From positions 810,001-842,000 of the forward strand of contig CP064995.1 of NCBI GenBank assembly GCA_016700015.1: a stretch of 32,000 nt of DNA, read 5' to 3'. The notes below the pieces were generated by a model, which searched no databases, had not been told where the DNA came from, and saw only the letters and a program-made list of their open reading frames with translations. This document shows, piece after piece, positions 398 through 18,943 of the stretch. Positions within the stretch are counted from its first letter, which is position 1; the number at the start of each line of letters is the position of its first letter. Source of the DNA: Candidatus Saccharimonadota bacterium (GTDB taxonomy: Bacteria; Patescibacteriota; Saccharimonadia; Saccharimonadales; Saccharimonadaceae). The position numbers were made by a program, and so were the translations under genes.

Positions 398-556
398 TGA
401 CGCCGCTACGACACACTATATCTAGCGTAGGGTGTTGTTCATTCTACTCTACTGGTGGACAAAGGTCTTTAAAGCTGCGTACCTACCGTCGGTTGTGGGC
501 ACACTTACTGCTCGTTATTATTGCCCGCGAGCCAACAAAAATCAACTACCCAAGTC

Positions 557-1755: not shown

Positions 1756-2967
1756 CTATACGACTGTCAGCCAGATCAATACCAGGTTGAGCAGCACTAC
1801 CAGCGCGGTAATCGCACCGAGTATCATCGACACAAGGCGTGAGTTTGCCTGGTCGCCCATGACACTGCGCCTCGCCGAAACGATCGTCAGCGGCACCAAT
1901 GCGAATGGCACCCCAAAACTCAGCGCAACCTGCGAAATAATCAGCAAGAACAGTGGGTCAAAACTAACTACGAGCAAAAATAACGCCGGTATCATGGTGA
2001 TCAAGCGTCGTGCCCACAGTGGCACAGGCACCCGTATGAGGTCTTGCATCACCACACTCCCCGCCTGGCTACCAACCGCGGTGCTCGCAAGACCCGATAC
2101 CAACAACCCGACAGCGAATAGCACCGCAACCAGCGGCCCAAGCCGCTCGCCAAGCGCAGTAAATATATCACCAAAGCTATCTGCACCGGTTCCACCAAGC
2201 ACCGCCGCCGCTAAAAGTAACATAGATATGTTGACCGTACCAGCAATCGCCATCGCCAAACCCACATCTATCTTGGTTGCGTGTAGATACCGGCGTAGCT
2301 CCCGGGGCTTCACTTTGCCATGTCGATCACGCGCTAGCGCCGAATGCAGGTACACGACATGCGGCATGATAGTAGCACCGATCATTGCTGTCGCGAGCAA
2401 CAGGGTTTCTTGTCCATCAAAGCGTGGCACCAGCCCACCGAGTGCGCCACCAAGGTCAGGCGGATGCTGTAATAGTCCCGCAAAGAATCCAATGGGGATA
2501 ATGACCAGTAGTGCAACGATCACTCGCTCAAAATACGGTTGGCCTTTATGACTATAAACGTACAATAGCGCCATCGATACGATGCCGACGATAAGCCCGC
2601 CGAGCGGCAGCGGCAGCCCAAACAACAGATGGAGCGCTACCGCGCCACCAACAACTTCAGCGATATCGGTCGCAACTGCCACCAGTTCCGCCTGCGCCCA
2701 GTACAGCCGCCTGCCCCACCGCGGCAGCCGCTCGGCCACTAGCTCGGGCAGCGACTTGCCAGTGACAAGCCCTACCTTCGCGCTCGTATACTGCGCCAGC
2801 GCCGCCATAAGGTTGGCGAGCACCAGCACCCATAGCAGCAAAAACCCATATTTTGCGCCTGCGCCAAAATTGGCCGCAAAATTACCTGGGTCGACATAGG
2901 CCACCGCCGCCACAAACGCCGGGCCGAGTAGCCGTAGTATCCTTCGCCACTGTCGCCGCAATCTCAT
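1756..2967 (-). CDS. mntH: NRAMP-family divalent metal (Mn2+/Fe2+) transporter
   Basis: A 403-aa ORF. GPAFVAAVAYVDPGNFAANFGAGAKYGFLLLWVLVLANLMAALAQYTSAKVGLVTGKSL is the NRAMP signature (DPGN). The protein is polytopic. Confidence 0.92.
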   Translation of the reverse strand: MRLRRQWRRILRLLGPAFVAAVAYVDPGNFAANFGAGAKYGFLLLWVLVLANLMAALAQYTSAKVGLVTGKSLPELVAERLPRWGRRLYWAQAELVAVATDIAEVVGGAVALHLLFGLPLPLGGLIVGIVSMALLYVYSHKGQPYFERVIVALLVIIPIGFFAGLLQHPPDLGGALGGLVPRFDGQETLLLATAMIGATIMPHVVYLHSALARDRHGKVKPRELRRYLHATKIDVGLAMAIAGTVNISMLLLAAAVLGGTGADSFGDIFTALGERLGPLVAVLFAVGLLVSGLASTAVGSQAGSVVMQDLIRVPVPLWARRLITMIPALFLLVVSFDPLFLLIISQVALSFGVPFALVPLTIVSARRSVMGDQANSRLVSMILGAITALVVLLNLVLIWLTVV

Positions 2968-5278: not shown

Positions 5279-5869
5279 CTACTGCAACTGCTTCCCAAAT
5301 ACTTTGGGCACTGGGTCACCAAAGCGTACTTCGGGTACGTCAATCACCCCGCGTACTGTCATACGGGGGAACATGCGCTGGTAAATCACATCGGCACCGC
5401 CGAACACCACCGCGGCCCAATCAAAGCCAAGTAGGCCAGCGGTTTTTTTGACAGCTGCTTCTGATTCGCCCTCGATCTCGATATACGGGTTCATCCACGG
5501 CCACTCGTCGATCACCACTTCACACTCCCCTAGCTGCCAGGTTTCACGTTTGCTCTCTTGGTAAGTCTGCACCATAAGTCCGCAAGCTTTTAGAATTTCG
5601 AGCGCGGTATCAAAACCACTCACAGGTACTTCGTGCTCGCTCGCGCTGTGCGCTTGGTCGCCATGAAACTGCTTGTAGGTAAGCGTCACTTTATCGCCTT
5701 CGTCGCGCAGGCGCACAAAAGCATCATCGCGTGCCATCTGCTCGGTTTCTATGAGTACGCGGCGCATGAGGCGCATAGGTGCGGTGCACGAGGCGCCTGC
5801 CCTAGTCAGTCGCGCACGAACATCGTCTATGTCTATATCCATAAATTTCGCTTCAATTTCTGGCTTCAT
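5279..5869 (-). CDS. CYTH-domain protein (triphosphate tunnel metalloenzyme / class IV adenylate cyclase-like)
   Basis: I use the internal start at 5869 of ORF 5279..6208. MKPEIEAKFMDIDIDDVRARL carries the N-terminal ExExK CYTH signature. The ~196-aa length is typical. The longer ORF extension overlaps the upstream gene and translates as junk. Confidence 0.8.
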   Translation of the reverse strand: MKPEIEAKFMDIDIDDVRARLTRAGASCTAPMRLMRRVLIETEQMARDDAFVRLRDEGDKVTLTYKQFHGDQAHSASEHEVPVSGFDTALEILKACGLMVQTYQESKRETWQLGECEVVIDEWPWMNPYIEIEGESEAAVKKTAGLLGFDWAAVVFGGADVIYQRMFPRMTVRGVIDVPEVRFGDPVPKVFGKQLQ

Positions 5870-5885
5870 ACTACCTAAGTATAAG

Positions 5886-6260
5886 CTACTCTTCAAAACT
5901 AGTGGGAAAGTCATTGAGACTACGATAGACAATCGGCCGGCCAGCTTTCTTGGCGTTGTCGATGCCATACCGCATGCCGCGGCTAATACCGCGGTCCATA
6001 TACACCACGGTACGCTCGGCAAACATACCGATTGCCAGGCCAGCCTCAATCCCAATATGCCGTTCAATCGGCACCGTGTCATCAAGCATCTGCGTGTACA
6101 GCAAATGGCTAGCAAACGGCGCCTCGTGGTGACGCATGAGCGCGTCGCGCATCGCCGCCATCGCGTAGTCGTGGTTGGCCCGTAAGCCCTCTTCAGTATC
6201 GGCCGCAAACGGGCTTTCTAGTAGTACAAATGTTGGTGGCCGTTCCTGCTGCGCGCTCAT
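5886..6260 (-). CDS. small hypothetical protein, nucleoside 2-deoxyribosyltransferase-like (DUF4406-like) pattern
   Basis: Internal ATG 6260 is preceded by GGGGAGAATA. The 124-aa product has FVLLESPFAAD ... TVVYMDRGISRGMRYGIDNAKKAGRPIV, resembling the two-motif layout of NDT-fold proteins. The family assignment is tentative. Confidence 0.65.
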   Translation of the reverse strand: MSAQQERPPTFVLLESPFAADTEEGLRANHDYAMAAMRDALMRHHEAPFASHLLYTQMLDDTVPIERHIGIEAGLAIGMFAERTVVYMDRGISRGMRYGIDNAKKAGRPIVYRSLNDFPTSFEE

Positions 6261-6310
6261 TATTCTCCCCTGTGACGTCCACCCAAACCTATTTGTTTTG
6301 TATTGTACCA

Positions 6311-6356
6311 CAATAAAATATGGCCGTGTGCGCTCCTTGCGGATACACACACGGCC
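6311..6356 (-). terminator. intrinsic terminator of the 6366..6860 gene
   Basis: The minus strand reads GGCCGTGTG-(17 nt)-CACACGGCC, a perfect 9-bp stem with arms at 6322-6330 and 6348-6356. It is followed by ATATTTTATTG. Confidence 0.7.
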
Positions 6357-6365
6357 GGGGGCACC

Positions 6366-6860
6366 CTACAGATCGTTGACGTTCGTCACCTCACCGCGGG
6401 GCAGTGAGATGACGTCACCATTGGCTCGTACGGTGACCATCCCTGGTAGCTGCTCGGCCTGTGCCTCGTTCATGACGCGAATGCGGAACACCCGGCCCAC
6501 CATGAATGGCGGCGGGTCGTAGGCTTCCACCATCTGCACCTCGAAAGGCCGACTGGCGATGAGCGCGTCGAGTTCGGCGATGCGCGGATCGTCGTCGCCA
6601 CACTCGGCGAGTGCCTCCAACCGCGCGGCGATGTCCGGGTCGAGCACCTCGAGCCCGCCCATCAGCCACAGGGTGTAGCTGGCAGTGACCAGGACGTAGT
6701 CGTCAACACGCGACAGACCGAAGTGGTCGTCCAGAGCGATGAGGGCTGCGAGCGTTGTCGCTGGCTCCTCGTCGAACCTGTTGGTGCCGACCTGTTCAGC
6801 CGCCGCACCCAGCGCGTCGACAAGCCCGTGGCCGAACACTAGGTCATTGGTTGATGCCAT
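6366..6860 (-). CDS. hypothetical protein (acidic, high-GC codon usage)
   Basis: A 164-aa ORF with its own promoter (6905-6933) and terminator. My hand count of 6361-6480 is 73/120 G+C (about 61%). I recognise no family. Confidence 0.7.
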   Translation of the reverse strand: MASTNDLVFGHGLVDALGAAAEQVGTNRFDEEPATTLAALIALDDHFGLSRVDDYVLVTASYTLWLMGGLEVLDPDIAARLEALAECGDDDPRIAELDALIASRPFEVQMVEAYDPPPFMVGRVFRIRVMNEAQAEQLPGMVTVRANGDVISLPRGEVTNVNDL

Positions 6861-6904
6861 TGAAATACACCTGCCTTCTGAATTGTAGGGGGTACTAAAG
6901 CAGT

Positions 6905-6933
6905 ATTATGACAAATTTACACGTATATGTCAA
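6905..6933 (-). promoter_or_regulatory. sigma70-type promoter (TTGACA-17-CATAAT) for 6366..6860
   Basis: On the minus strand, TTGACA is at 6933-6928 and CATAAT at 6910-6905, with a 17-nt spacer. Confidence 0.6.
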
Positions 6934-6934
6934 C

Positions 6935-7459
6935 CTATAGCTGCAACGCGACGCGATACGCAGCCTCTTCAAGCAGCATCTCACGAGTTATTCTACCGTC
7001 AGTCACGAGTGGGTACGGGTCTTTCAGCTCACTGCCGTAGCGCTGCTGCATCATGACGCCAAAATCTGGATACACGGCTGGTACAAGCTCGGCAATTTCA
7101 GGTGGAAACTCCACGTCAACATCGAGCCCCATTTTGCGTACACCGCCCATCTGCTCGATAATCACGATCGAAAGCCCTCGAAATCCGAGCGCCTCGTGGA
7201 GCGTATCATTGCCACTCTCGATCGTCGCTAAATACTCACCTGCTGTAGCGCCAGCAATCTCATGTAGTTGAGCGTGGCGATTCAGTGCGCCACGGATTGT
7301 TTCATCGAGGCTGAGCGGCTGCTCATTAACTCCGCTTTTCGTTGTATAGCCCACAACATCAACTGAATGTCCGGCCCGCTCCATGGCATGCTGCAGCGCA
7401 CCAAGCTTGATTGGGCTCTGGCTACTCACATGTAGGCGACGGTGATGACGCTCGGCCAT
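6935..7459 (-). CDS. inosine/xanthosine triphosphatase (YjjX/DUF84-family non-canonical purine NTP phosphatase)
   Basis: A 174-aa ORF. VSSQSPIKLGALQHAM ... VGYTTKSGVNEQPLSLDETIRGALNRH parallels the YjjX pattern (TTNPAK..A ... VESGVPEQPFG.EET..GA.NR). It starts 4 nt after the nrdB stop, so it is in the same operon. Confidence 0.8.
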   Translation of the reverse strand: MAERHHRRLHVSSQSPIKLGALQHAMERAGHSVDVVGYTTKSGVNEQPLSLDETIRGALNRHAQLHEIAGATAGEYLATIESGNDTLHEALGFRGLSIVIIEQMGGVRKMGLDVDVEFPPEIAELVPAVYPDFGVMMQQRYGSELKDPYPLVTDGRITREMLLEEAAYRVALQL

Positions 7460-7463
7460 CTCG

Positions 7464-8510
7464 CTATTTGTCGTCGTTTTCGGTTGGTTCTTCTTCGGTG
7501 CCGTCGGTCGTCGCTTTGAGCTTGGCTTCGGCGTTACCCGCGTTTACTTCGTAGCTGGTGTTGGTACTTTCGAAAAAGTTGACGAGTTCGTAGGTGTCAT
7601 TCGCGGTTGCCATCCACTTAGCGGGATTGCTCACATTGTAGTGCGGCTCGAAACCCAACTCTTCCAGGCGTCGATCGGTCAGGTATTTTACGTACTGATT
7701 AATATAGTCGGCATTGAGGCCTAGAATACCGTTTGGTAGTAGCGCCTTGTTGTATTCTTCTTCCATAGCCACGCCGTCAAGAATCATTTGCTTAATCTCT
7801 TCGGCAAATGCTGGGTCCTGTAGGTCCTCGTTTTCTTCAATAACCGTAAGAATGAGATTGATGCCAAATTTGAGGTGTAGACTCTCGTCACGCACAATCC
7901 AGTCAATCAGACTACCAAAGTTTCGAAGCAGATTTCGTTGTCGGAACGACAATGCAACCATAAAGCCAGAGTAGAACCAAATACCTTCAAGGATGATATT
8001 GTAGGCGATGAGGTTGCGGATGAAGTCTTTTTTGCCCTCTGTTGTCGTGATATCCATCGTGTCTTCGGTCATACGCTTGATATATTTGGTCTCAAACTCT
8101 TCTTTGATGGCCATCACCTTTTCATCAACATGAGCGCTATAAGCTTTTTCGCGGTCAATTGGAAAGGTATCAAGTACGTACTCAAAGGCCATACAGTGGT
8201 TGGCCTCTTCCCACATTTGCTTTGCAAGGTATAGGTGACACTCGGCGGCATTGACGTAGGGGTAGACGCCAAATGCTAGTGCTTTGTTGACCAGCAGCTC
8301 GTTAGGGTTGAAATAGCTCATGAGGAACGTCACCGCGTGGCGCTCTTCTTCGGTCATCTTTTCCCAGTCTGCAAGGTCTTGTGCCAACTGAATCTCGTTG
8401 GGGAACCACGTGTTGGCAACCGCTTGGTCATACAAATCCATCGCCCATTGGTAGTGGATTGGCTTGAGTAACAAGCCGTCTTGGATACCAGCGCCTAGTA
8501 TCTTTCCCAT
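7464..8510 (-). CDS. nrdB: ribonucleotide reductase small subunit, class Ic-like (R2c: Phe at the radical-Tyr position)
   Basis: A 348-aa ORF preceded by AAAGGAGG. The ferritin-like motifs are WEEANHCMAFEYV (E-x-x-H then F at +4), YNIILEGIWFYSGF and VRDESLHLKFG. It aligns closely by eye with Chlamydia R2c (FEEAVHTHTFLYI; YYIIMEGIFFYSGF; LRDETIHLNFG). Confidence 0.92.
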   Translation of the reverse strand: MGKILGAGIQDGLLLKPIHYQWAMDLYDQAVANTWFPNEIQLAQDLADWEKMTEEERHAVTFLMSYFNPNELLVNKALAFGVYPYVNAAECHLYLAKQMWEEANHCMAFEYVLDTFPIDREKAYSAHVDEKVMAIKEEFETKYIKRMTEDTMDITTTEGKKDFIRNLIAYNIILEGIWFYSGFMVALSFRQRNLLRNFGSLIDWIVRDESLHLKFGINLILTVIEENEDLQDPAFAEEIKQMILDGVAMEEEYNKALLPNGILGLNADYINQYVKYLTDRRLEELGFEPHYNVSNPAKWMATANDTYELVNFFESTNTSYEVNAGNAEAKLKATTDGTEEEPTENDDK

Positions 8511-8599: not shown

Positions 8600-8794
8600 C
8601 TAGCAAGCATGCTCGAGCGCATCCCCTGCCTCGGCATACCGGACATAGTGGAAGCCGAGGCGACGAAAGGCTTCTTTCAGTACCTCTTCGGTCGTTGGTT
8701 GGTCTTCCGGTGTTGCCACGATGTGCGTACCGTAGTCAGCGAAGGTATGGCCAGGATACTGCACTGCAAGCAGTGCCCGTTGTTCAGGAGTCAT
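8600..8794 (-). CDS. small hypothetical protein (64 aa) inside the nrd operon
   Basis: The ORF-track entry is preceded by GGGGGAG about 8 nt upstream. It lies between nrdA and nrdB on the same strand. The product is MTPEQRALLAVQYPGHTFADYGTHIVATPEDQPTTEEVLKEAFRRLGFHYVRYAEAGDALEHAC. Confidence 0.55.
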   Translation of the reverse strand: MTPEQRALLAVQYPGHTFADYGTHIVATPEDQPTTEEVLKEAFRRLGFHYVRYAEAGDALEHAC

Positions 8795-8807
8795 CCCTAC
8801 ACTCCCC

Positions 8808-8981
8808 CTACTGGCAACCGTCGCACATGGTCAGGTCGGCTGGATCGATCGGTGCTGCAACCTCGCCACGTGCAGTTGCCGCTTCATTGGCAGCTGTTTG
8901 AGCCTGCTCCATAGCATCGCTGATTGCCTGCAGTTTTTCTTCGAGTGTCATGGTGTCATTGATGATAGTAGATGCGTTCAT
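8808..8981 (-). CDS. small hypothetical protein (57 aa) ending in a CxxC tail (..DLTMCDGCQ), immediately after nrdA
   Basis: My own translation; the ORF is below the 60-aa cutoff of the track. The sequence is MNASTIINDTMTLEEKLQAISDAMEQAQTAANEAATARGEVAAPIDPADLTMCDGCQ. A strong RBS TAGGAGGGGAT precedes ATG 8981 and overlaps the nrdA stop. Confidence 0.5.
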   Translation of the reverse strand: MNASTIINDTMTLEEKLQAISDAMEQAQTAANEAATARGEVAAPIDPADLTMCDGCQ

Positions 8982-8989
8982 ATCCCCTC

Positions 8990-11398
8990 CTATACGCTTT
9001 GTTTCTTTGCGAAGCCAAACCCAGCCTTGCGGGCGCCGCCAGCGGCCAATGCTTCTGCTTTATTAACTTTTGTGGTACTCTGCTCCGCCTGATGACGTGG
9101 TTTCATATGTAGGTAATACGTGGTTTTGAGCCCGCGTAGCCACCCCTCCATATAGACCGTTTCCATGTCATCAATGCTGCGTGATTCAAGATACATATTG
9201 CGGCTGATTGCTTGGTCAACCCACTTCTGTGCCCGAGCCGCCACTTCGATAAAGGCAAACGGGCTAAGCTGGAAGCAAGTCTTGTAAACATCTTTCAAAT
9301 GCTGGGGAATTTGCTCGATATTCGTCAGGTCGCCCTGCTCCACCAGCAAACGCTCTTTCACGTCATCCCATATGCCGAGTGCTTTTAGGTCGCGCACAAG
9401 GTTGGTGTTCACTTCAAGGAATTTACCATTCAGCGTGCTGCGGCTAAATATCTGGCCAAACTGTGGGTCAATCCCCGGAGTAGTGCCGGCCACGTGAGCG
9501 ATATTGGCCGTTGGCGCAATCGCCATCAGCGTGGCGTTGCGCATACCCTTAGTCGTCTTCTTGCGTAGCAATTCCCAATCAAGGCGTTTTTTGCGCGTGA
9601 GCTTTACCTTCACTTTGCGGTCTTTTTCGTGCTTGTCGAGGCTATCGACAGGCAGTTCGCCCTTGCTCCAGCCGCTGCCTTTAAAGTCTGGGTAGGCACC
9701 GCGGGTTTTTGCAAGATTAGCCGACTCATCAATCGCATAGTAGCTAATGTATTCTGCCATCTGATCCATCAGGTCGTAGGCTTCTTCGGATTCATAGCTG
9801 TAGCCCATCTTTTCGACGACATCGGTGAAGCCCATAATGCCAAGGCCAAGGGCCCGTGTGGTCTTAATGCTATGAATCGCTTCTGGAATAGGCGTATCGG
9901 TAACATCGCACAGGTTATCGAGTTGGCGTATCGCACTGCGTGCCGCGAGTTCTAGCCGTTTCCAGTCCCACTCTTTTTTCTCCACGTCCAAAAACGCACT
10001 TAGGTTGATGCTCACAAGGTTGCACACCGATATATTGTCTTTGTCATTGGGCAGCGTAATCTCGGTACACAGGTTTGACGAGTGAATAGTGCTGACATTG
10101 TTGTTGAGTGCTCGCACGTTGATACTATCTTTCCAGGTAATCCACGGATGGCTACTCGCCTGCAGGCGAATGAGGATTTGCCGCCACTGCTGCCGCGCCG
10201 GTACTTTGTCGAACACGCGCAGCTTGCCCGCTTCGGCCAGTTTCACATACTCACTGTAGCGTGCACTAAAGGCTGCACCGTAGAGTTCGCTCAGGTCAGC
10301 TGTTTCAGCAGGATCAAACATATACCAGTCCTGCTCTTTTTGCACTCGTTTCATGAACTCGTCGCTGATATACACGGCGATGTTGGCAAATCTTGTGCGG
10401 TAGTACGGGTCACCGTTGTTTTCGCGCAAATCCATAAATGCCGGGAAATTAAGATGCCAGTTTTCCATGTAGATCGCGGCTGCGCCGGCTTTTTTGCCTT
10501 TGCGACTGACCGCAAACAGCGCGGTATCGATCATTTTCATGAACGGTAGCGGACCGGTACTCACCGTATTGGTGGTTTTGACCGGGCTACCAGCCGCACG
10601 GAGCTTGTTCATACTAATACCAATCCCACCGGTACCCTTGGCAATCCACATGGTGTCGCGAATGCTTTTAGCGATACTCTCCATATCGTCTTCGACATCA
10701 ATTACAAAGCAGTTAGAAAGCTGCGGGAAGCTGCCGCCCGCGTTAACCCGCGTGCTGCCGCCAGGCAGGTAGTCTAGATTGCTCATGTGCTTGTAAAAAT
10801 CGAGCGCTGCTTTGGTAGGGTTTTTCTCGTTGAAACTGAGCCCCATCGCAATCCGCATATGAGTAAACTGCGGCGTTTCGAGTGGTTCACCGTTTTGCTT
10901 ACGCAGCGCATAGCGGTTTTTGTTGGTGATGACGCCGAGGTACTTGCTCAGCTTGTCTTTTTCGGGGTCGAGCGCGTCGCCAAGTGCTTTCAGGTCAAAC
11001 AGCTTGCTGTCGGCCATCCGCTTGTCAAGCAAGCCATCCTTCACCGCCTGCTTAATATAGCGAGGAAAATGACTGGCGTGCAGCTTTTTCAGCTCAGCAT
11101 CGTCGGTATAGTCGCCCAGAATATTCTTATAAATGTTTTTCAGCAGCAAACGCGCAGCAATGGTATCAAAGTCTGGGTCGTCTTTTACGTTTTGCAGCGC
11201 AGTGTGAATCACCGCTTCGTCGAGCTCTTCGCTCGTAATTCCGTCAAATAATGTCAGTTGCAACTCTGTCGCTACCTGCACTACTTTTTGTATTTGATCA
11301 GGCAAACCCTCGCTTGCTCGTACAAGCGCCAGGTTTATCTTGTTGGCGTCAAATGGTTCGCGGGTGCCATCGCGTTTCACCACTTGGATGTTTGTCAT
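8990..11398 (-). CDS. nrdA: ribonucleotide reductase large subunit, class I, with N-terminal ATP-cone
   Basis: An 802-aa ORF. The ATP-cone is VVKRDGTREPFDANKINLAL. The active-site motifs LSNCFVI and SSNLCTEITLP and the radical-transfer pair TTYYLH are present. The last 40 aa contain no cysteine. Confidence 0.95.
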   Translation of the reverse strand: MTNIQVVKRDGTREPFDANKINLALVRASEGLPDQIQKVVQVATELQLTLFDGITSEELDEAVIHTALQNVKDDPDFDTIAARLLLKNIYKNILGDYTDDAELKKLHASHFPRYIKQAVKDGLLDKRMADSKLFDLKALGDALDPEKDKLSKYLGVITNKNRYALRKQNGEPLETPQFTHMRIAMGLSFNEKNPTKAALDFYKHMSNLDYLPGGSTRVNAGGSFPQLSNCFVIDVEDDMESIAKSIRDTMWIAKGTGGIGISMNKLRAAGSPVKTTNTVSTGPLPFMKMIDTALFAVSRKGKKAGAAAIYMENWHLNFPAFMDLRENNGDPYYRTRFANIAVYISDEFMKRVQKEQDWYMFDPAETADLSELYGAAFSARYSEYVKLAEAGKLRVFDKVPARQQWRQILIRLQASSHPWITWKDSINVRALNNNVSTIHSSNLCTEITLPNDKDNISVCNLVSINLSAFLDVEKKEWDWKRLELAARSAIRQLDNLCDVTDTPIPEAIHSIKTTRALGLGIMGFTDVVEKMGYSYESEEAYDLMDQMAEYISYYAIDESANLAKTRGAYPDFKGSGWSKGELPVDSLDKHEKDRKVKVKLTRKKRLDWELLRKKTTKGMRNATLMAIAPTANIAHVAGTTPGIDPQFGQIFSRSTLNGKFLEVNTNLVRDLKALGIWDDVKERLLVEQGDLTNIEQIPQHLKDVYKTCFQLSPFAFIEVAARAQKWVDQAISRNMYLESRSIDDMETVYMEGWLRGLKTTYYLHMKPRHQAEQSTTKVNKAEALAAGGARKAGFGFAKKQSV

Positions 11399-11548
11399 AT
11401 GCCCTGTCCTTTATGTTATGTTAGTACCCTCGCTCGATAGCCACGTCCACCTCCCTCAAAGTGTCCTAGCACACCACAAGAATAGCTACCACTAGTGTGG
11501 TGAGCTAGCTCTACGATAATCTTGCGGTGGTGTCTATTTTGCTGAACT

Positions 11549-11564
11549 ACTACATATGTAGTGT
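11549..11564. promoter_or_regulatory. NrdR-box-like palindrome (ACTACATATGTAGTGT) just downstream of the nrdA -10
   Basis: Contains the perfect 14-bp palindrome ACTACATATGTAGT. It matches about 12/16 of the NrdR-box consensus as I recall it (acaCwAtATaTwGtgt). Confidence 0.6.
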
Positions 11565-11573
11565 CTGTATAGA

Positions 11574-11602
11574 ATAATATGCGCTATATATGGAGATTTC
11601 AA
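11574..11602 (-). promoter_or_regulatory. nrdA promoter (TTGAAA-17-TATTAT)
   Basis: On the minus strand, TTGAAA is at 11602-11597, the spacer is TCTCCATATATAGCGCA, and TATTAT is at 11579-11574. The spacer contains a second NrdR-like box. Confidence 0.6.
11581..11596. promoter_or_regulatory. NrdR-box-like element (minus strand tctCCATATATAGCGc) in the nrdA promoter spacer
   Basis: The core CATATATAG is present. Its centre is 32 bp from the centre of the 11549-11564 box, the usual tandem NrdR-box spacing. Confidence 0.5.
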
Positions 11603-11638
11603 GTATTTTGGCTATGTTTTTTTCGCAACGCCTTACGC

Positions 11639-11654
11639 CAACACCTTATAGTGT
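11639..11654. promoter_or_regulatory. NrdR-box-like half-conserved element (caACACcttATAGTGT)
   Basis: The right half TATAGTGT is conserved and is followed by CTATGG, as in the other boxes. It is the upstream member of a second pair. Confidence 0.4.
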
Positions 11655-11671
11655 CTATGGTAATTTTTACT

Positions 11672-11687
11672 ACGCTATATGTAGCGT
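11672..11687. promoter_or_regulatory. NrdR-box-like palindrome (ACGCTATATGTAGCGT)
   Basis: A 6+4+6 near-palindrome matching about 13/16 of the consensus. Its centre is 33 bp from the 11639-11654 element. Confidence 0.5.
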
Positions 11688-11735
11688 CTATGTCACTGAA
11701 AGAAATAACATATTTATACTTCACTGAGAATAGTA

Positions 11736-17723: not shown

Positions 17724-18943
17724 TATTCGTTGATCACATCGAAAACGCCTATCACTCGCTAAGGCGTAACCGAGCACGCAGTGTTCTCACAACCCTCGGA
17801 ATCGCCATAGGTATCGCCAGCATCACCTGTATCCTTGCCTTGAGCAGCGGTGTGTCGCGAATGATTAACCAACAGATCGAAGCCTATAGTGGTAACCTCG
17901 TTGTTGTGCGTCCAGGACTACAAACCCGCGACCCCAATGCCCTCACTAACCCCGTGGCCCAGCAATCGTTTAGCACGAGTAGCCTTACTGAAGCGGATGC
18001 AGGCGCTATAGCGGAGCTCCCTGGCATAGATACGGCTGTACCAGTGATGACTGTTGACGGCACATTAAAATCACAAACCGAAACCATCGAAAATGGTGTT
18101 GTTGTTGCTACAACATCTGGTTTTACCAAGGTTGCCAACATCACTATGAAGAGCGGCCAATTCCTCGATGAATCGACCGATGCCAACACTGCAGTGGTCG
18201 GCGAGCAGCTTGCGATCGACCTCTTCGGCACAGAACGTCCAATCAGTAGTACATTCACAATCCGCGGCTTACAGTTCACAGTGATCGGTGTGATTAAAAA
18301 ATCGCAAAACCCCATCAATTACAACAATGTCGACCTCAACAATGCTGCGGTTGTCAGCCTTGCTCAGGGCAAGCAATTTCACCAATCCCGCGCTCAGATC
18401 CAGCAAATCAATGTGCTCGCTAAATCCGGCAGCAATATGCAGCAAATTGCCACTAGTGTGTCTAGTCGCCTCCTCCAAGCACATGGCGGCGAAAAAGATT
18501 TTTCCATCGCCGTCGGTCAAGATATCGGCAAGCCGACCAACCAGTTATTTGTGGCGCTCACCCAGGTAATGACCGCCATCGCCGCTATTTCACTGTTCGT
18601 CGGCGGCATTGGCATTATGAATATCATGCTGGTTGGCGTGGCCGAACGGACACGCGAAATTGGCATCCGTAAAGCTGTCGGCGCCAGCAATGCTAGTATC
18701 GTTTCACAGTTCCTGATTGAATCGTTGATGATGAGTCTCATCGGTGGACTGATTGGCTATTTCACTGGCTACGTACTCGCCTTCATTATCAGTACTCAGC
18801 TGTATTTTGCCCCTGCATTTACGTGGCAGGTTGCCGCAATTGCGCTGGTAATGGCGCTATGCGTCGGCCTTATATTCGGTATCTTCCCCGCCCTTAAAGC
18901 TGCTCGCAAAGATACGATTGAATCCCTGAGGCAATACCACTAG
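17720..18943 (+). CDS. ABC transporter permease, MacB/FtsX family
   Basis: A 407-aa ORF with an ATGA start/stop overlap with the ATPase. It has an N-terminal TM segment, a large periplasmic domain and a C-terminal FtsX-type 3-TM module (ERTREIGIRKAVGAS motif). Confidence 0.9.
   Translation: MIFVDHIENAYHSLRRNRARSVLTTLGIAIGIASITCILALSSGVSRMINQQIEAYSGNLVVVRPGLQTRDPNALTNPVAQQSFSTSSLTEADAGAIAELPGIDTAVPVMTVDGTLKSQTETIENGVVVATTSGFTKVANITMKSGQFLDESTDANTAVVGEQLAIDLFGTERPISSTFTIRGLQFTVIGVIKKSQNPINYNNVDLNNAAVVSLAQGKQFHQSRAQIQQINVLAKSGSNMQQIATSVSSRLLQAHGGEKDFSIAVGQDIGKPTNQLFVALTQVMTAIAAISLFVGGIGIMNIMLVGVAERTREIGIRKAVGASNASIVSQFLIESLMMSLIGGLIGYFTGYVLAFIISTQLYFAPAFTWQVAAIALVMALCVGLIFGIFPALKAARKDTIESLRQYH

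Follow-up and report, generated by a model that had tools for sequence, protein, structure and literature searches.

How does a class I ribonucleotide reductase (RNR) recharge its active site if its catalytic subunit has no cysteines in its tail? To our knowledge, a cysteine pair at the C-terminus is taken for granted in all catalytic subunits of class I RNRs. Familiar examples are C754/C759 of E. coli NrdA and the CX2C of yeast Rnr1. In the account of class I RNRs given in PMC5704485, the disulfide of the active site is reduced again by the tail pair, which in turn receives its electrons from thioredoxin or glutaredoxin. The ending is CXXC in most class I RNRs (bioRxiv 10.1101/2022.04.23.489257). 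The locus considered here lies in a 32,000-nucleotide stretch of a Candidatus Saccharimonadota genome (contig CP064995.1, positions 810,001 to 842,000; hereafter "the window", whose own numbering is used below). It carries an nrdA gene without such a tail, followed directly by a 57-codon open reading frame (ORF), ORF57, that ends in CxxC plus one residue. Probably, gene fission has detached the C-terminal redox tail of NrdA, which now exists as the 57-residue micro-protein ORF57 and would act in trans as the dithiol tail of a class Ic-like RNR. The genes concerned, with the means by which each was assigned (dN/dS being the ratio of nonsynonymous to synonymous substitution rates), are:

11398..8990, minus strand: nrdA, class I RNR catalytic subunit, 802 aa (Pfam, PDB, alignment)
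8982..8992, minus strand: nrdA stop codon TAG and the overlapping Shine-Dalgarno sequence AGGAGGGG of ORF57 (read from the sequence)
8981..8808, minus strand: ORF57, proposed detached NrdA redox tail, 57 aa (homologues, dN/dS, alignment to fused tails)
8794..8600, minus strand: ORF64, small gene between ORF57 and nrdB, 64 aa (homologue clusters, dN/dS)
8510..7464, minus strand: nrdB, class Ic-like radical-generating subunit, 348 aa (PDB alignment)

The window NrdA has the Pfam domains ATP-cone, Ribonuc_red_lgN (all-alpha) and Ribonuc_red_lgC (the ten-stranded barrel), and the catalytic motifs LSNCF, NLCTE, VCNL and TTYY are all present. The active-site residues are intact (C230; N, C444 and E of NLCTE; C459; and the two tyrosines of TTYY), the closest PDB match is Pseudomonas aeruginosa NrdA (5IM3, E=1.7e-186), and with nrdB in the same operon the architecture is that of class I and not class II. 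The protein has five cysteines in all (230, 444, 459, 497 and 708). Since the last of them is at position 708, the 40 residues that follow TTYY (LHMKPRHQAEQSTTKVNKAEALAAGGARKAGFGFAKKQSV), which end in the conserved motif RKAGFGFAKK, contain none; the lack of a C-terminal redox pair, reported in an earlier note made from the letters of this DNA alone, is thus borne out. The closest loci are those of activated-sludge Saccharimonas, with 95% NrdA identity, and the most similar phage NrdA is 38% identical. A phage origin of the window was considered and rejected: megablast found no match to phage DNA, IMG/VR holds no close relative, and the homologues of ORF57 and NrdA are from Candidatus Saccharibacteria (TM7), on contigs of up to 1 Mb.

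At the junction the order is nrdA stop TAG, GAGGGGAT and the ATG of ORF57, reading T-AGGAGGGG-AT-ATG. ORF57 starts 8 nt after the nrdA stop, and its strong Shine-Dalgarno sequence overlaps the stop codon; both the coordinates and the letters agree with the earlier description of a 57-aa ORF 8 nt downstream, behind a strong ribosome-binding site (RBS) and ending in CDGCQ. Its frame, said to be open for at least 9 codons upstream, is open for 18 codons 5' of its own ATG, and this upstream opening is not kept in relatives. ORF64 begins 13 nt past the ORF57 stop, behind GGGGAG, and ends in ALEHAC, the ending given in the earlier note. No terminator-like sites were found on the coding strand between nrdA and nrdB. 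It is true that the two small genes are richer in GC than nrdA (53.4% for ORF57 and 56.9% for ORF64 versus 51.1%; 52.3% for the whole window), but the difference is trivial.

The full sequence of ORF57 is MNASTIINDTMTLEEKLQAISDAMEQAQTAANEAATARGEVAAPIDPADLTMCDGCQ. At its N-terminal end there is a conserved amphipathic helix, MTLEEKLQAISDAMEQAQ, and at the other end a module, APIDPADLTMCDGCQ-COOH, whose terminal residues are C53-D-G-C56-Q57. Members of the family are built alike, with a helix (MTLEEKLxAIDxAM), a linker that varies in length and composition (Ala-rich in ORF57), and the module P[IV]DPxxLxxCx[GS]C[QE]-COOH. A word-indexed search returned 457 homologues, nearly all exactly 57 aa long, and 25 columns, including C53, G55 and C56, are invariant across 34 aligned members. 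An exhaustive search of 1.84 billion representative proteins gave 119 matches to the ORF57 profile, which are small save for three long proteins (442-1169 aa) with weak and partial matches. Every full-length small protein of the family (92/92) ends in CxxC plus one residue; the 24 small matches without this ending are truncated or frame-shifted past profile position ~35-45. The dN/dS values of ORF57 (0.009), nrdA (0.021) and nrdB (0.009) were obtained against a relative at which dS is near saturation, roughly 1.7-2.4, and that of ORF64 is 0.11. Purifying selection on ORF57 is very strong, with a constraint like that of nrdB, and the ORF is a genuine gene.

The AlphaFold2 (AF2) model of ORF57 predicts one helix (residues 13-37) and a low-confidence, unstructured C-terminus: residues 38-57 are coil save for one short turn, and the per-residue confidence (pLDDT) falls below 50 at 54-57. 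A profile search of the PDB returned coiled-coil noise and nothing else, and Pfam gave no redoxin match. With a single helix and CxxC at the extreme C-terminus, ORF57 does not have the make-up of a thioredoxin fold. It shares with class I tails two cysteines near the C-terminus (CxxC or CxxxxC within the last ~10 residues) and, in the AF2 prediction, a flexible segment that carries them; it differs from them in having its own ORF and RBS instead of covalent continuity with the catalytic subunit. A bare C..C.-stop ending occurs in 4/917 six-frame segments of the window. That ending alone is not rare; what makes ORF57 significant is its conservation, its synteny and its homology with fused tails, and not the motif in a single sequence.

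For the comparison across Saccharibacteria, 80 species-representative genomes and three further contigs provided 83 loci. Whether the 57-aa ORF sits by nrdA elsewhere had been raised in the earlier note, and the answer is clear: ORF57 was detected at 79/83 loci, the misses being mostly at contig ends. All 82 readable NrdA tails (82/82) are without cysteine and share the common pattern ...KPRHxAEQSTxKVNK...GFGFAK. In about 70 species ORF57 is immediately 3' of nrdA, and a distant member of 68 aa retains the gene order nrdA-ORF-nrdB. Five species (L058, L065, L072, L079 and L080; at about 5400-7400) have the order nrdA, nrdB, a gene for a PNPOx-like split-barrel protein (110-135 aa), and ORF57. 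The PNPOx-ORF57 pair also adjoins a ZIP transporter and a superoxide dismutase (SOD) in L087-L089.

These loci bear directly on whether a longer NrdA has simply been broken, by a sequencing or assembly indel, a pseudogenising frameshift or a programmed frameshift, as the earlier note had offered for its second option, or by readthrough. The frame that is open for 18 codons upstream of the ORF57 ATG could be read in this way, as could those relatives in which nrdA and ORF57 are in the same frame with one stop between them. However, the two-gene layout is found in ~75 independent species-level assemblies, each ORF57 has its own RBS and begins anywhere from 3 to 181 nt past the nrdA stop, in any of the three frames relative to nrdA, nrdB and another gene intervene in the five species of one subclade, and strong purifying selection acts on the micro-ORF from its ATG onwards. 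An artefact or a decaying gene is therefore refuted, and we give it next to no credence.

If ORF57 is a detached tail, then its end should be recognisable in NrdAs that still carry theirs. Three outgroup NrdAs, one in an Acinetobacter-like record that bears a phage label and two of Pseudomonas phages, end in ...DCEACQ, ...ECESCQ and ...ECEACQ. The first of these records (L090, CAKLQH020000007.1, "Acinetobacter phage MD-2021a") carries rstAB, nrdAB and hcpC in a chromosomal-looking arrangement and is probably bacterial sequence mislabelled as phage. Viral contigs supplied 71 complete NrdA tails (31-43% identical), and in 70 of them a cysteine pair is followed by one final residue. The exception, L097, has no tail cysteine; it is 61% identical and belongs to the window's own clade. 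This NrdA (103-2409 of a 95-kb IMG/VR contig) also has an intein-like insertion within NLC|TE, and nrdB follows directly, after which the contig ends. Across 75 outgroup tails with CxxC plus one residue, the ending is CESCQ in 54 and CEACQ in 15, usually in the context ACS[IL]xDPxCESCQ.

Closer counterparts were retrieved with a chimeric query in which the last 110 residues of NrdA were joined to ORF57. It recovered ten metagenomic NrdA fragments, covering 95-100% of the query, in which the proximal tail and the GFG motif recur, followed by a low-complexity linker of 60-130 residues and endings such as ...GPVDPNDALLCDGCQ, ...CPIDPAELAQCDSCQ, ...ACPVDPAERALCEACQ (P0316) and ...PVDPNDALLCDGCQ (P0359). 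In its fused, ancestral state the tail consists of the proximal part KPRHxAEQSTxKVNK...[KR][KR]GFG, the long low-complexity linker, and a terminal [AC]P[IV]DPx[DE]xxxC[DE]xCQ-COOH. The last 16 residues of ORF57, of the fused tails and of short actinobacterial peptides (described below) align without gaps on the pattern [AC]P[IV]DPx[DE]xxxC[DE]xCQ. Fused NrdAs ending in CxxC, which the earlier note had suggested looking for, hence exist in sister lineages, and the end of ORF57 is homologous to true NrdA tails, as judged from the sister NrdAs P0359 and P0316 and from the outgroup consensus. No long protein with the whole ORF57 profile was found among the 1.84 billion representatives; the fused tails share the terminal module only. 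A 14-residue profile hidden Markov model (HMM) built from the outgroup tails did not rank ORF57 among the six-frame segments of the window, because the motif is too short for HMMER statistics. The case for homology, made at the level of sequence, is one of anchored motif identity and context.

The motif [KR][KR]GF[GA](F) terminates every Cys-less NrdA of the clade (window 8990-9030, minus strand; L004-L083 and L178-L259) and is repeated one to three times within fused NrdA tails (P0316, P0338, P0343 and P0350).

The shape of ORF57, a small product with a conserved Cys-bearing C-terminal core and a variable N-terminal part, also recalls the precursor of a ribosomally synthesised and post-translationally modified peptide (RiPP) that merely happens to lie beside nrd genes. 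Such a precursor is very improbable here, since its supposed core equals the tail end of a housekeeping enzyme and no modifying enzyme, protease or exporter is conserved alongside it in any of the contexts examined.

A second split form was found outside Saccharibacteria. Two matches of the chimeric search were Cys-less NrdAs from metagenome-assembled genomes of Microbacteriaceae. For instance, in L178 (GC 64%) the nrdA stop overlaps, as TGATG, the start of a 29-aa ORF, MNEFTTADAPLEYVVPVDPMDELQCESCQ (710-802), which is followed by nrdB; its cluster is made up of proteins of Microbacteriaceae and Leifsonia that bear the label "hypothetical protein". In a metagenome scan 293 relatives of this short peptide were confirmed, and the counts that follow refer to the best 80 of them (L180-L259; GC 57-75%, contigs up to 3.4 Mb). 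At 53/80 loci a Cys-less NrdA ending in [RK][RK]GFG(F)GG... is linked to an ORF of 22-55 aa that ends in [VI]P[VT]DPMD[DE]LQCESCQ (DPMDELQCESCQ; VPVDPMDELQCESCQ). The two genes are -4 to +6 nt apart, the stop codon of one mostly overlapping the start codon of the next, and none of the linked NrdA tails (0 of 53) has a cysteine. An Amnibacterium contig carries a Cys-less NrdA without a peptide gene adjacent, which fits with the occurrence of unlinked peptide copies in very high-GC genomes. At L178, L188 and L259 the NrdA C-terminus is about 70% and NrdB 83% identical to the window proteins, which suggests horizontal transfer of a class Ic-like nrdAB between the epibiont lineage and the actinobacterial family.

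Copies of the peptide gene are found in cultured phages of Microbacteriaceae as well. Clavibacter phage CMP1 (NC_013698, 36704-36772) has an unannotated copy, MGDGEYTVPQDPMDEFQCDSCQ, that begins at the holin stop; Pontimonas phage phiPsal1 (MG835450, about 18362-18463) has an unannotated copy, ...VPIDPMDLLQCTSCQ, that overlaps the end of the holin gene; and Clavibacter phage CN1A also matches the peptide. Copies of this kind, right after a holin gene, together with chromosomal copies away from nrd genes, could mean that the peptide is an Sml1-like regulator or competitor of RNR, or a phage-related product independent of RNR, and that Cys-less NrdA is reduced directly by another reductant, as has been proposed for some class II RNRs without tail cysteines. 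The linked loci argue otherwise: the peptide gene runs in the same direction as a Cys-less nrdA, in most cases in tight coupling with it, at 53/53 actinobacterial loci with nrdA upstream and at ~75 Saccharibacteria loci, and its constraint equals that of the enzyme subunits. Phage thioredoxins such as T4 nrdC are auxiliary genes that boost deoxyribonucleotide (dNTP) supply, and the phage copies are equally well explained in that way. A regulatory or RNR-independent peptide is therefore unlikely.

The same phage copies suit a further reading of the micro-protein, as a free and dedicated dithiol carrier without a fold of its own that, by being a separate gene, has become mobile, is shared by Saccharibacteria and actinobacterial hosts, and is carried by actinophages (CMP1 and phiPsal1) to raise or take over host RNR turnover. 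If true, NrdA would in effect be served in trans by the smallest known "redoxin". We put this forward tentatively and lean towards doubting it.

The radical-generating subunit raises the question of a metal. The best PDB match of the window NrdB is the R2c protein of Chlamydia trachomatis (1SYY, E=7e-67), with FNPNELLV aligned to FSTAESLV and HCMAFEY to HTHTFLY. It has Phe at the position of the radical Tyr and Glu as first metal ligand, and by these sequence features NrdB is class Ic-like. In a distant relative (L084, 6241-8855), nrdB is followed by a 39-aa ORF predicted to be a membrane protein and by ZnuA/ABC-3-type metal uptake genes, with an Fe/Mn SOD upstream, an arrangement that would fit a metal-supply module for a Mn/Fe enzyme. 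The CxxC of the peptide might bind a metal (Fe, Zn or Cu) and serve in the assembly or protection of the Mn/Fe cofactor in NrdB, with no part in the reduction of NrdA. The class Ic-like NrdB would suit such a peptide, as would nearby metal genes (the ZnuA/ABC-3 and SOD genes of L084, the ZIP and SOD genes of L087, an Nramp gene in the window) and the third cysteine of some members (P0205) and of many fused tails (ACSI...). Nevertheless, ordinary NrdA tails close with this very motif, also in class Ia enzymes with a tyrosyl radical (Acinetobacter and Pseudomonas-type), where its accepted role is dithiol exchange; loss of cysteine from NrdA tracks the presence of the peptide exactly; and Mn is poorly served by two cysteines on a disordered end. 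A metal-handling peptide is thus improbable, a shade more so than a regulator.

Gene comparison is sufficient to demonstrate, at the sequence level, the fission, the way in which NrdA and micro-protein complement each other in their cysteines, the constraint under which the latter evolves, and its linkage to the operon. In the split state, as the genes are laid out, NrdA stops just past the GFG motif with no cysteine in its tail, and the terminal module is a gene of its own in or by the nrd operon. The simplest history that would account for this is a single fission within the linker, past the GFG motif. The detached, trans-acting redox tail that had been the first option of the earlier note is supported by tail homology, clade-wide cysteine loss and constraint; its redox role is the part that we infer. 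In the mechanism envisaged, the C230-C459 disulfide of NrdA would be reduced at each turnover by the CxxC dithiol of the free micro-protein, whose flexible end would enter the NrdA active site as a covalent tail does. A system of the thioredoxin or glutaredoxin type would then reduce the disulfide formed in the peptide. Docking of the 57-aa form, whether on NrdA or on the redoxin, is probably the task of its conserved N-terminal helix, and the 22-55-aa actinobacterial form would work without such a helix. ORF57 would in this manner do the redox job of the tail in trans.

Several observations weigh against a detached tail and lower our confidence in it. The direction of change, from fused to split, is read from a neighbour-joining (NJ) tree of the NrdA C-terminal barrel that places the fused forms at the base and all Cys-less forms in one derived clade, but this tree covers 105 residues before TTYY and carries no support values. 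The conserved N-terminal helix of ORF57 has no clear counterpart in the fused tails by MAFFT, and ORF57 is for this reason more than a cut-off tail. (Homology of the helix to "TLEQK/KEEILAKL" stretches of fused tails looked suggestive by eye and was dropped, MAFFT giving no support.) Two Cys-less NrdAs, L179 and L039, are without an adjacent peptide gene, and a Saccharibacteria-type member (L087) lies beside the ZIP transporter and SOD, not linked to nrdA. Similarly, 27/80 of the actinobacterial loci have no upstream nrdA and 25 have no match to nrdA or nrdB, although two of the 27 are contig-end cases in which nrdB comes directly after the peptide gene; the unlinked loci are partly phage or prophage (endolysin, primase, tail-fibre assembly protein, integrase) and otherwise chromosomal. 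Additionally, a free peptide would have to reach a useful local concentration, its exchange of dithiols, be it with NrdA or a redoxin, is proposed from sequence, and the 32-kb window holds no cytoplasmic redoxin gene, its sole thioredoxin-fold protein being membrane-anchored and paired with a DsbD-like protein. Set against the homology, the matching cysteine loss and the constraint, these points leave a detached redox tail as the probable explanation.

ORF64 is a different matter. Its homologues form two clusters only, at 98% and 81% identity, which hold the same position in the closest Saccharimonas relatives; it is absent from the 83 other Saccharibacteria loci and matches nothing in Pfam or PHROG. 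The dN/dS of 0.11 suggests that it is coding. The terminal cysteine to which the earlier note had drawn attention is incidental, as the 81%-identical homologue ends in ALERA and lacks it. ORF64 is a lineage-restricted small gene outside the redox-tail system. The third option of that note, an unrelated pair of micro-genes, accordingly fails for ORF57, which is homologous to fused tails, and is roughly right for ORF64, which is confined to the closest relatives.

The remaining features of the window concern control of the operon and its neighbourhood:

11540..11690, minus strand: operon control region, upstream of nrdA, with NrdR-box-like palindromes, ACGCTACATATAGCGT and related copies (pattern search)
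11602-11574, minus strand: promoter-like site, at consensus level only (promoter scan)
6935-7459, minus strand: NTPase_I-T gene, downstream of nrdB
5886-6350, minus strand: gene for a DUF7768 / nucleoside 2-deoxyribosyltransferase-like protein, downstream of nrdB
1756-2967, minus strand: Nramp Mn transporter gene, adjoining the DsbD_2-like gene
1037-1753: DsbD_2-like gene, directly after the thioredoxin-like gene
574-1036: membrane-anchored thioredoxin-like gene with a WCPEC motif

The NrdR-box-like pattern has 7 matches where 0.98 are expected. A near-identical NrdR-like box of 16 bp, ACGCTAGATATAGTGT, is located at window 413-428, ~150 nt 5' of the thioredoxin-like gene. The nucleotide-related genes 3' of nrdB (window 5279-7459, minus strand), which include one for a CYTH-domain protein, are kept in close relatives. 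An Rfam scan of the window returned one tRNA and nothing else.

If the proposed fission is correct, the class I tail cysteine pair exists as a separate micro-protein across a phylum-level lineage of ultra-small epibionts, and in a shorter form in an actinobacterial family. Such enzymes would offer a natural system for the study of tail re-reduction in trans, in which stoichiometry, docking and the recharging redoxin, hard to separate in fused enzymes, could be approached. Annotations that call these NrdAs complete and skip ORFs of 22-57 aa would miss a probably essential component. For Saccharibacteria, and for the plant pathogens among Microbacteriaceae (Clavibacter, Leifsonia), the peptide could also be a specific point at which to control dNTP supply or to aim drugs. 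An operon that is near-identical between the phyla of epibiont and host, together with the phage copies, suggests that an RNR module has been exchanged along the ecological association. In the literature searched, subscription-only papers apart, there was no report of a split class I RNR, of this micro-protein, or of RNR in Saccharibacteria; large RNR phylogeny papers give the CXXC tail as the class I consensus and discuss splitting for class II only.

Among known systems, the class I tail itself is alike in having its cysteine pair, which in ORF57 falls among the last six residues, in a flexible, disordered end, in sharing the module [AC]P[IV]DP...C[DE]xCQ, and presumably in carrying electrons from a redoxin to the disulfide of the active site. 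ORF57 differs from it as a separate product (57 aa; 22-55 aa in Microbacteriaceae), the 57-aa form having its own helix. The window RNR resembles the class Ic enzyme of Chlamydia trachomatis, whose 1SYY is the closest solved relative of NrdB, in its Phe radical site and Glu first ligand, and NrdA falls into one broad group with the enzymes of P. aeruginosa and Chlamydia; unlike the window NrdA, the NrdAs of this group that were examined (Acinetobacter, Pseudomonas phages) bear fused Cys tails. Accessory redox parts encoded with an RNR, and carried by phages too, are also familiar from NrdH, phage T4 thioredoxin and the glutaredoxin (Grx) fused to NrdB in Facklamia ignava (PMC6187632). However, those proteins have a thioredoxin fold and reduce the tail, whereas ORF57 lacks this fold and equals the tail itself.

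A split RNR has been described in class II. According to PMC4520616, the separate NrdJb "mediates efficient reductive dithiol exchange", and NrdJa/NrdJb of Pseudomonas aeruginosa is there called the only split RNR described from a free-living organism. The window system is like it in having a catalytic chain without tail cysteines, which an adjacent gene supplies. Unlike it, the window RNR is class I (Ic-like), NrdJ being a class II, B12-dependent enzyme with no NrdB. Additionally, NrdJb is a folded cysteine-rich zinc-finger domain, and domains of this type (CRD) are put at 150-220 aa in PMC5704485, whereas ORF57 is an unfolded micro-protein with two cysteines and one predicted helix. By mechanism, therefore, the nearest known system is NrdJa/NrdJb; by sequence, it is the ordinary class I tail.

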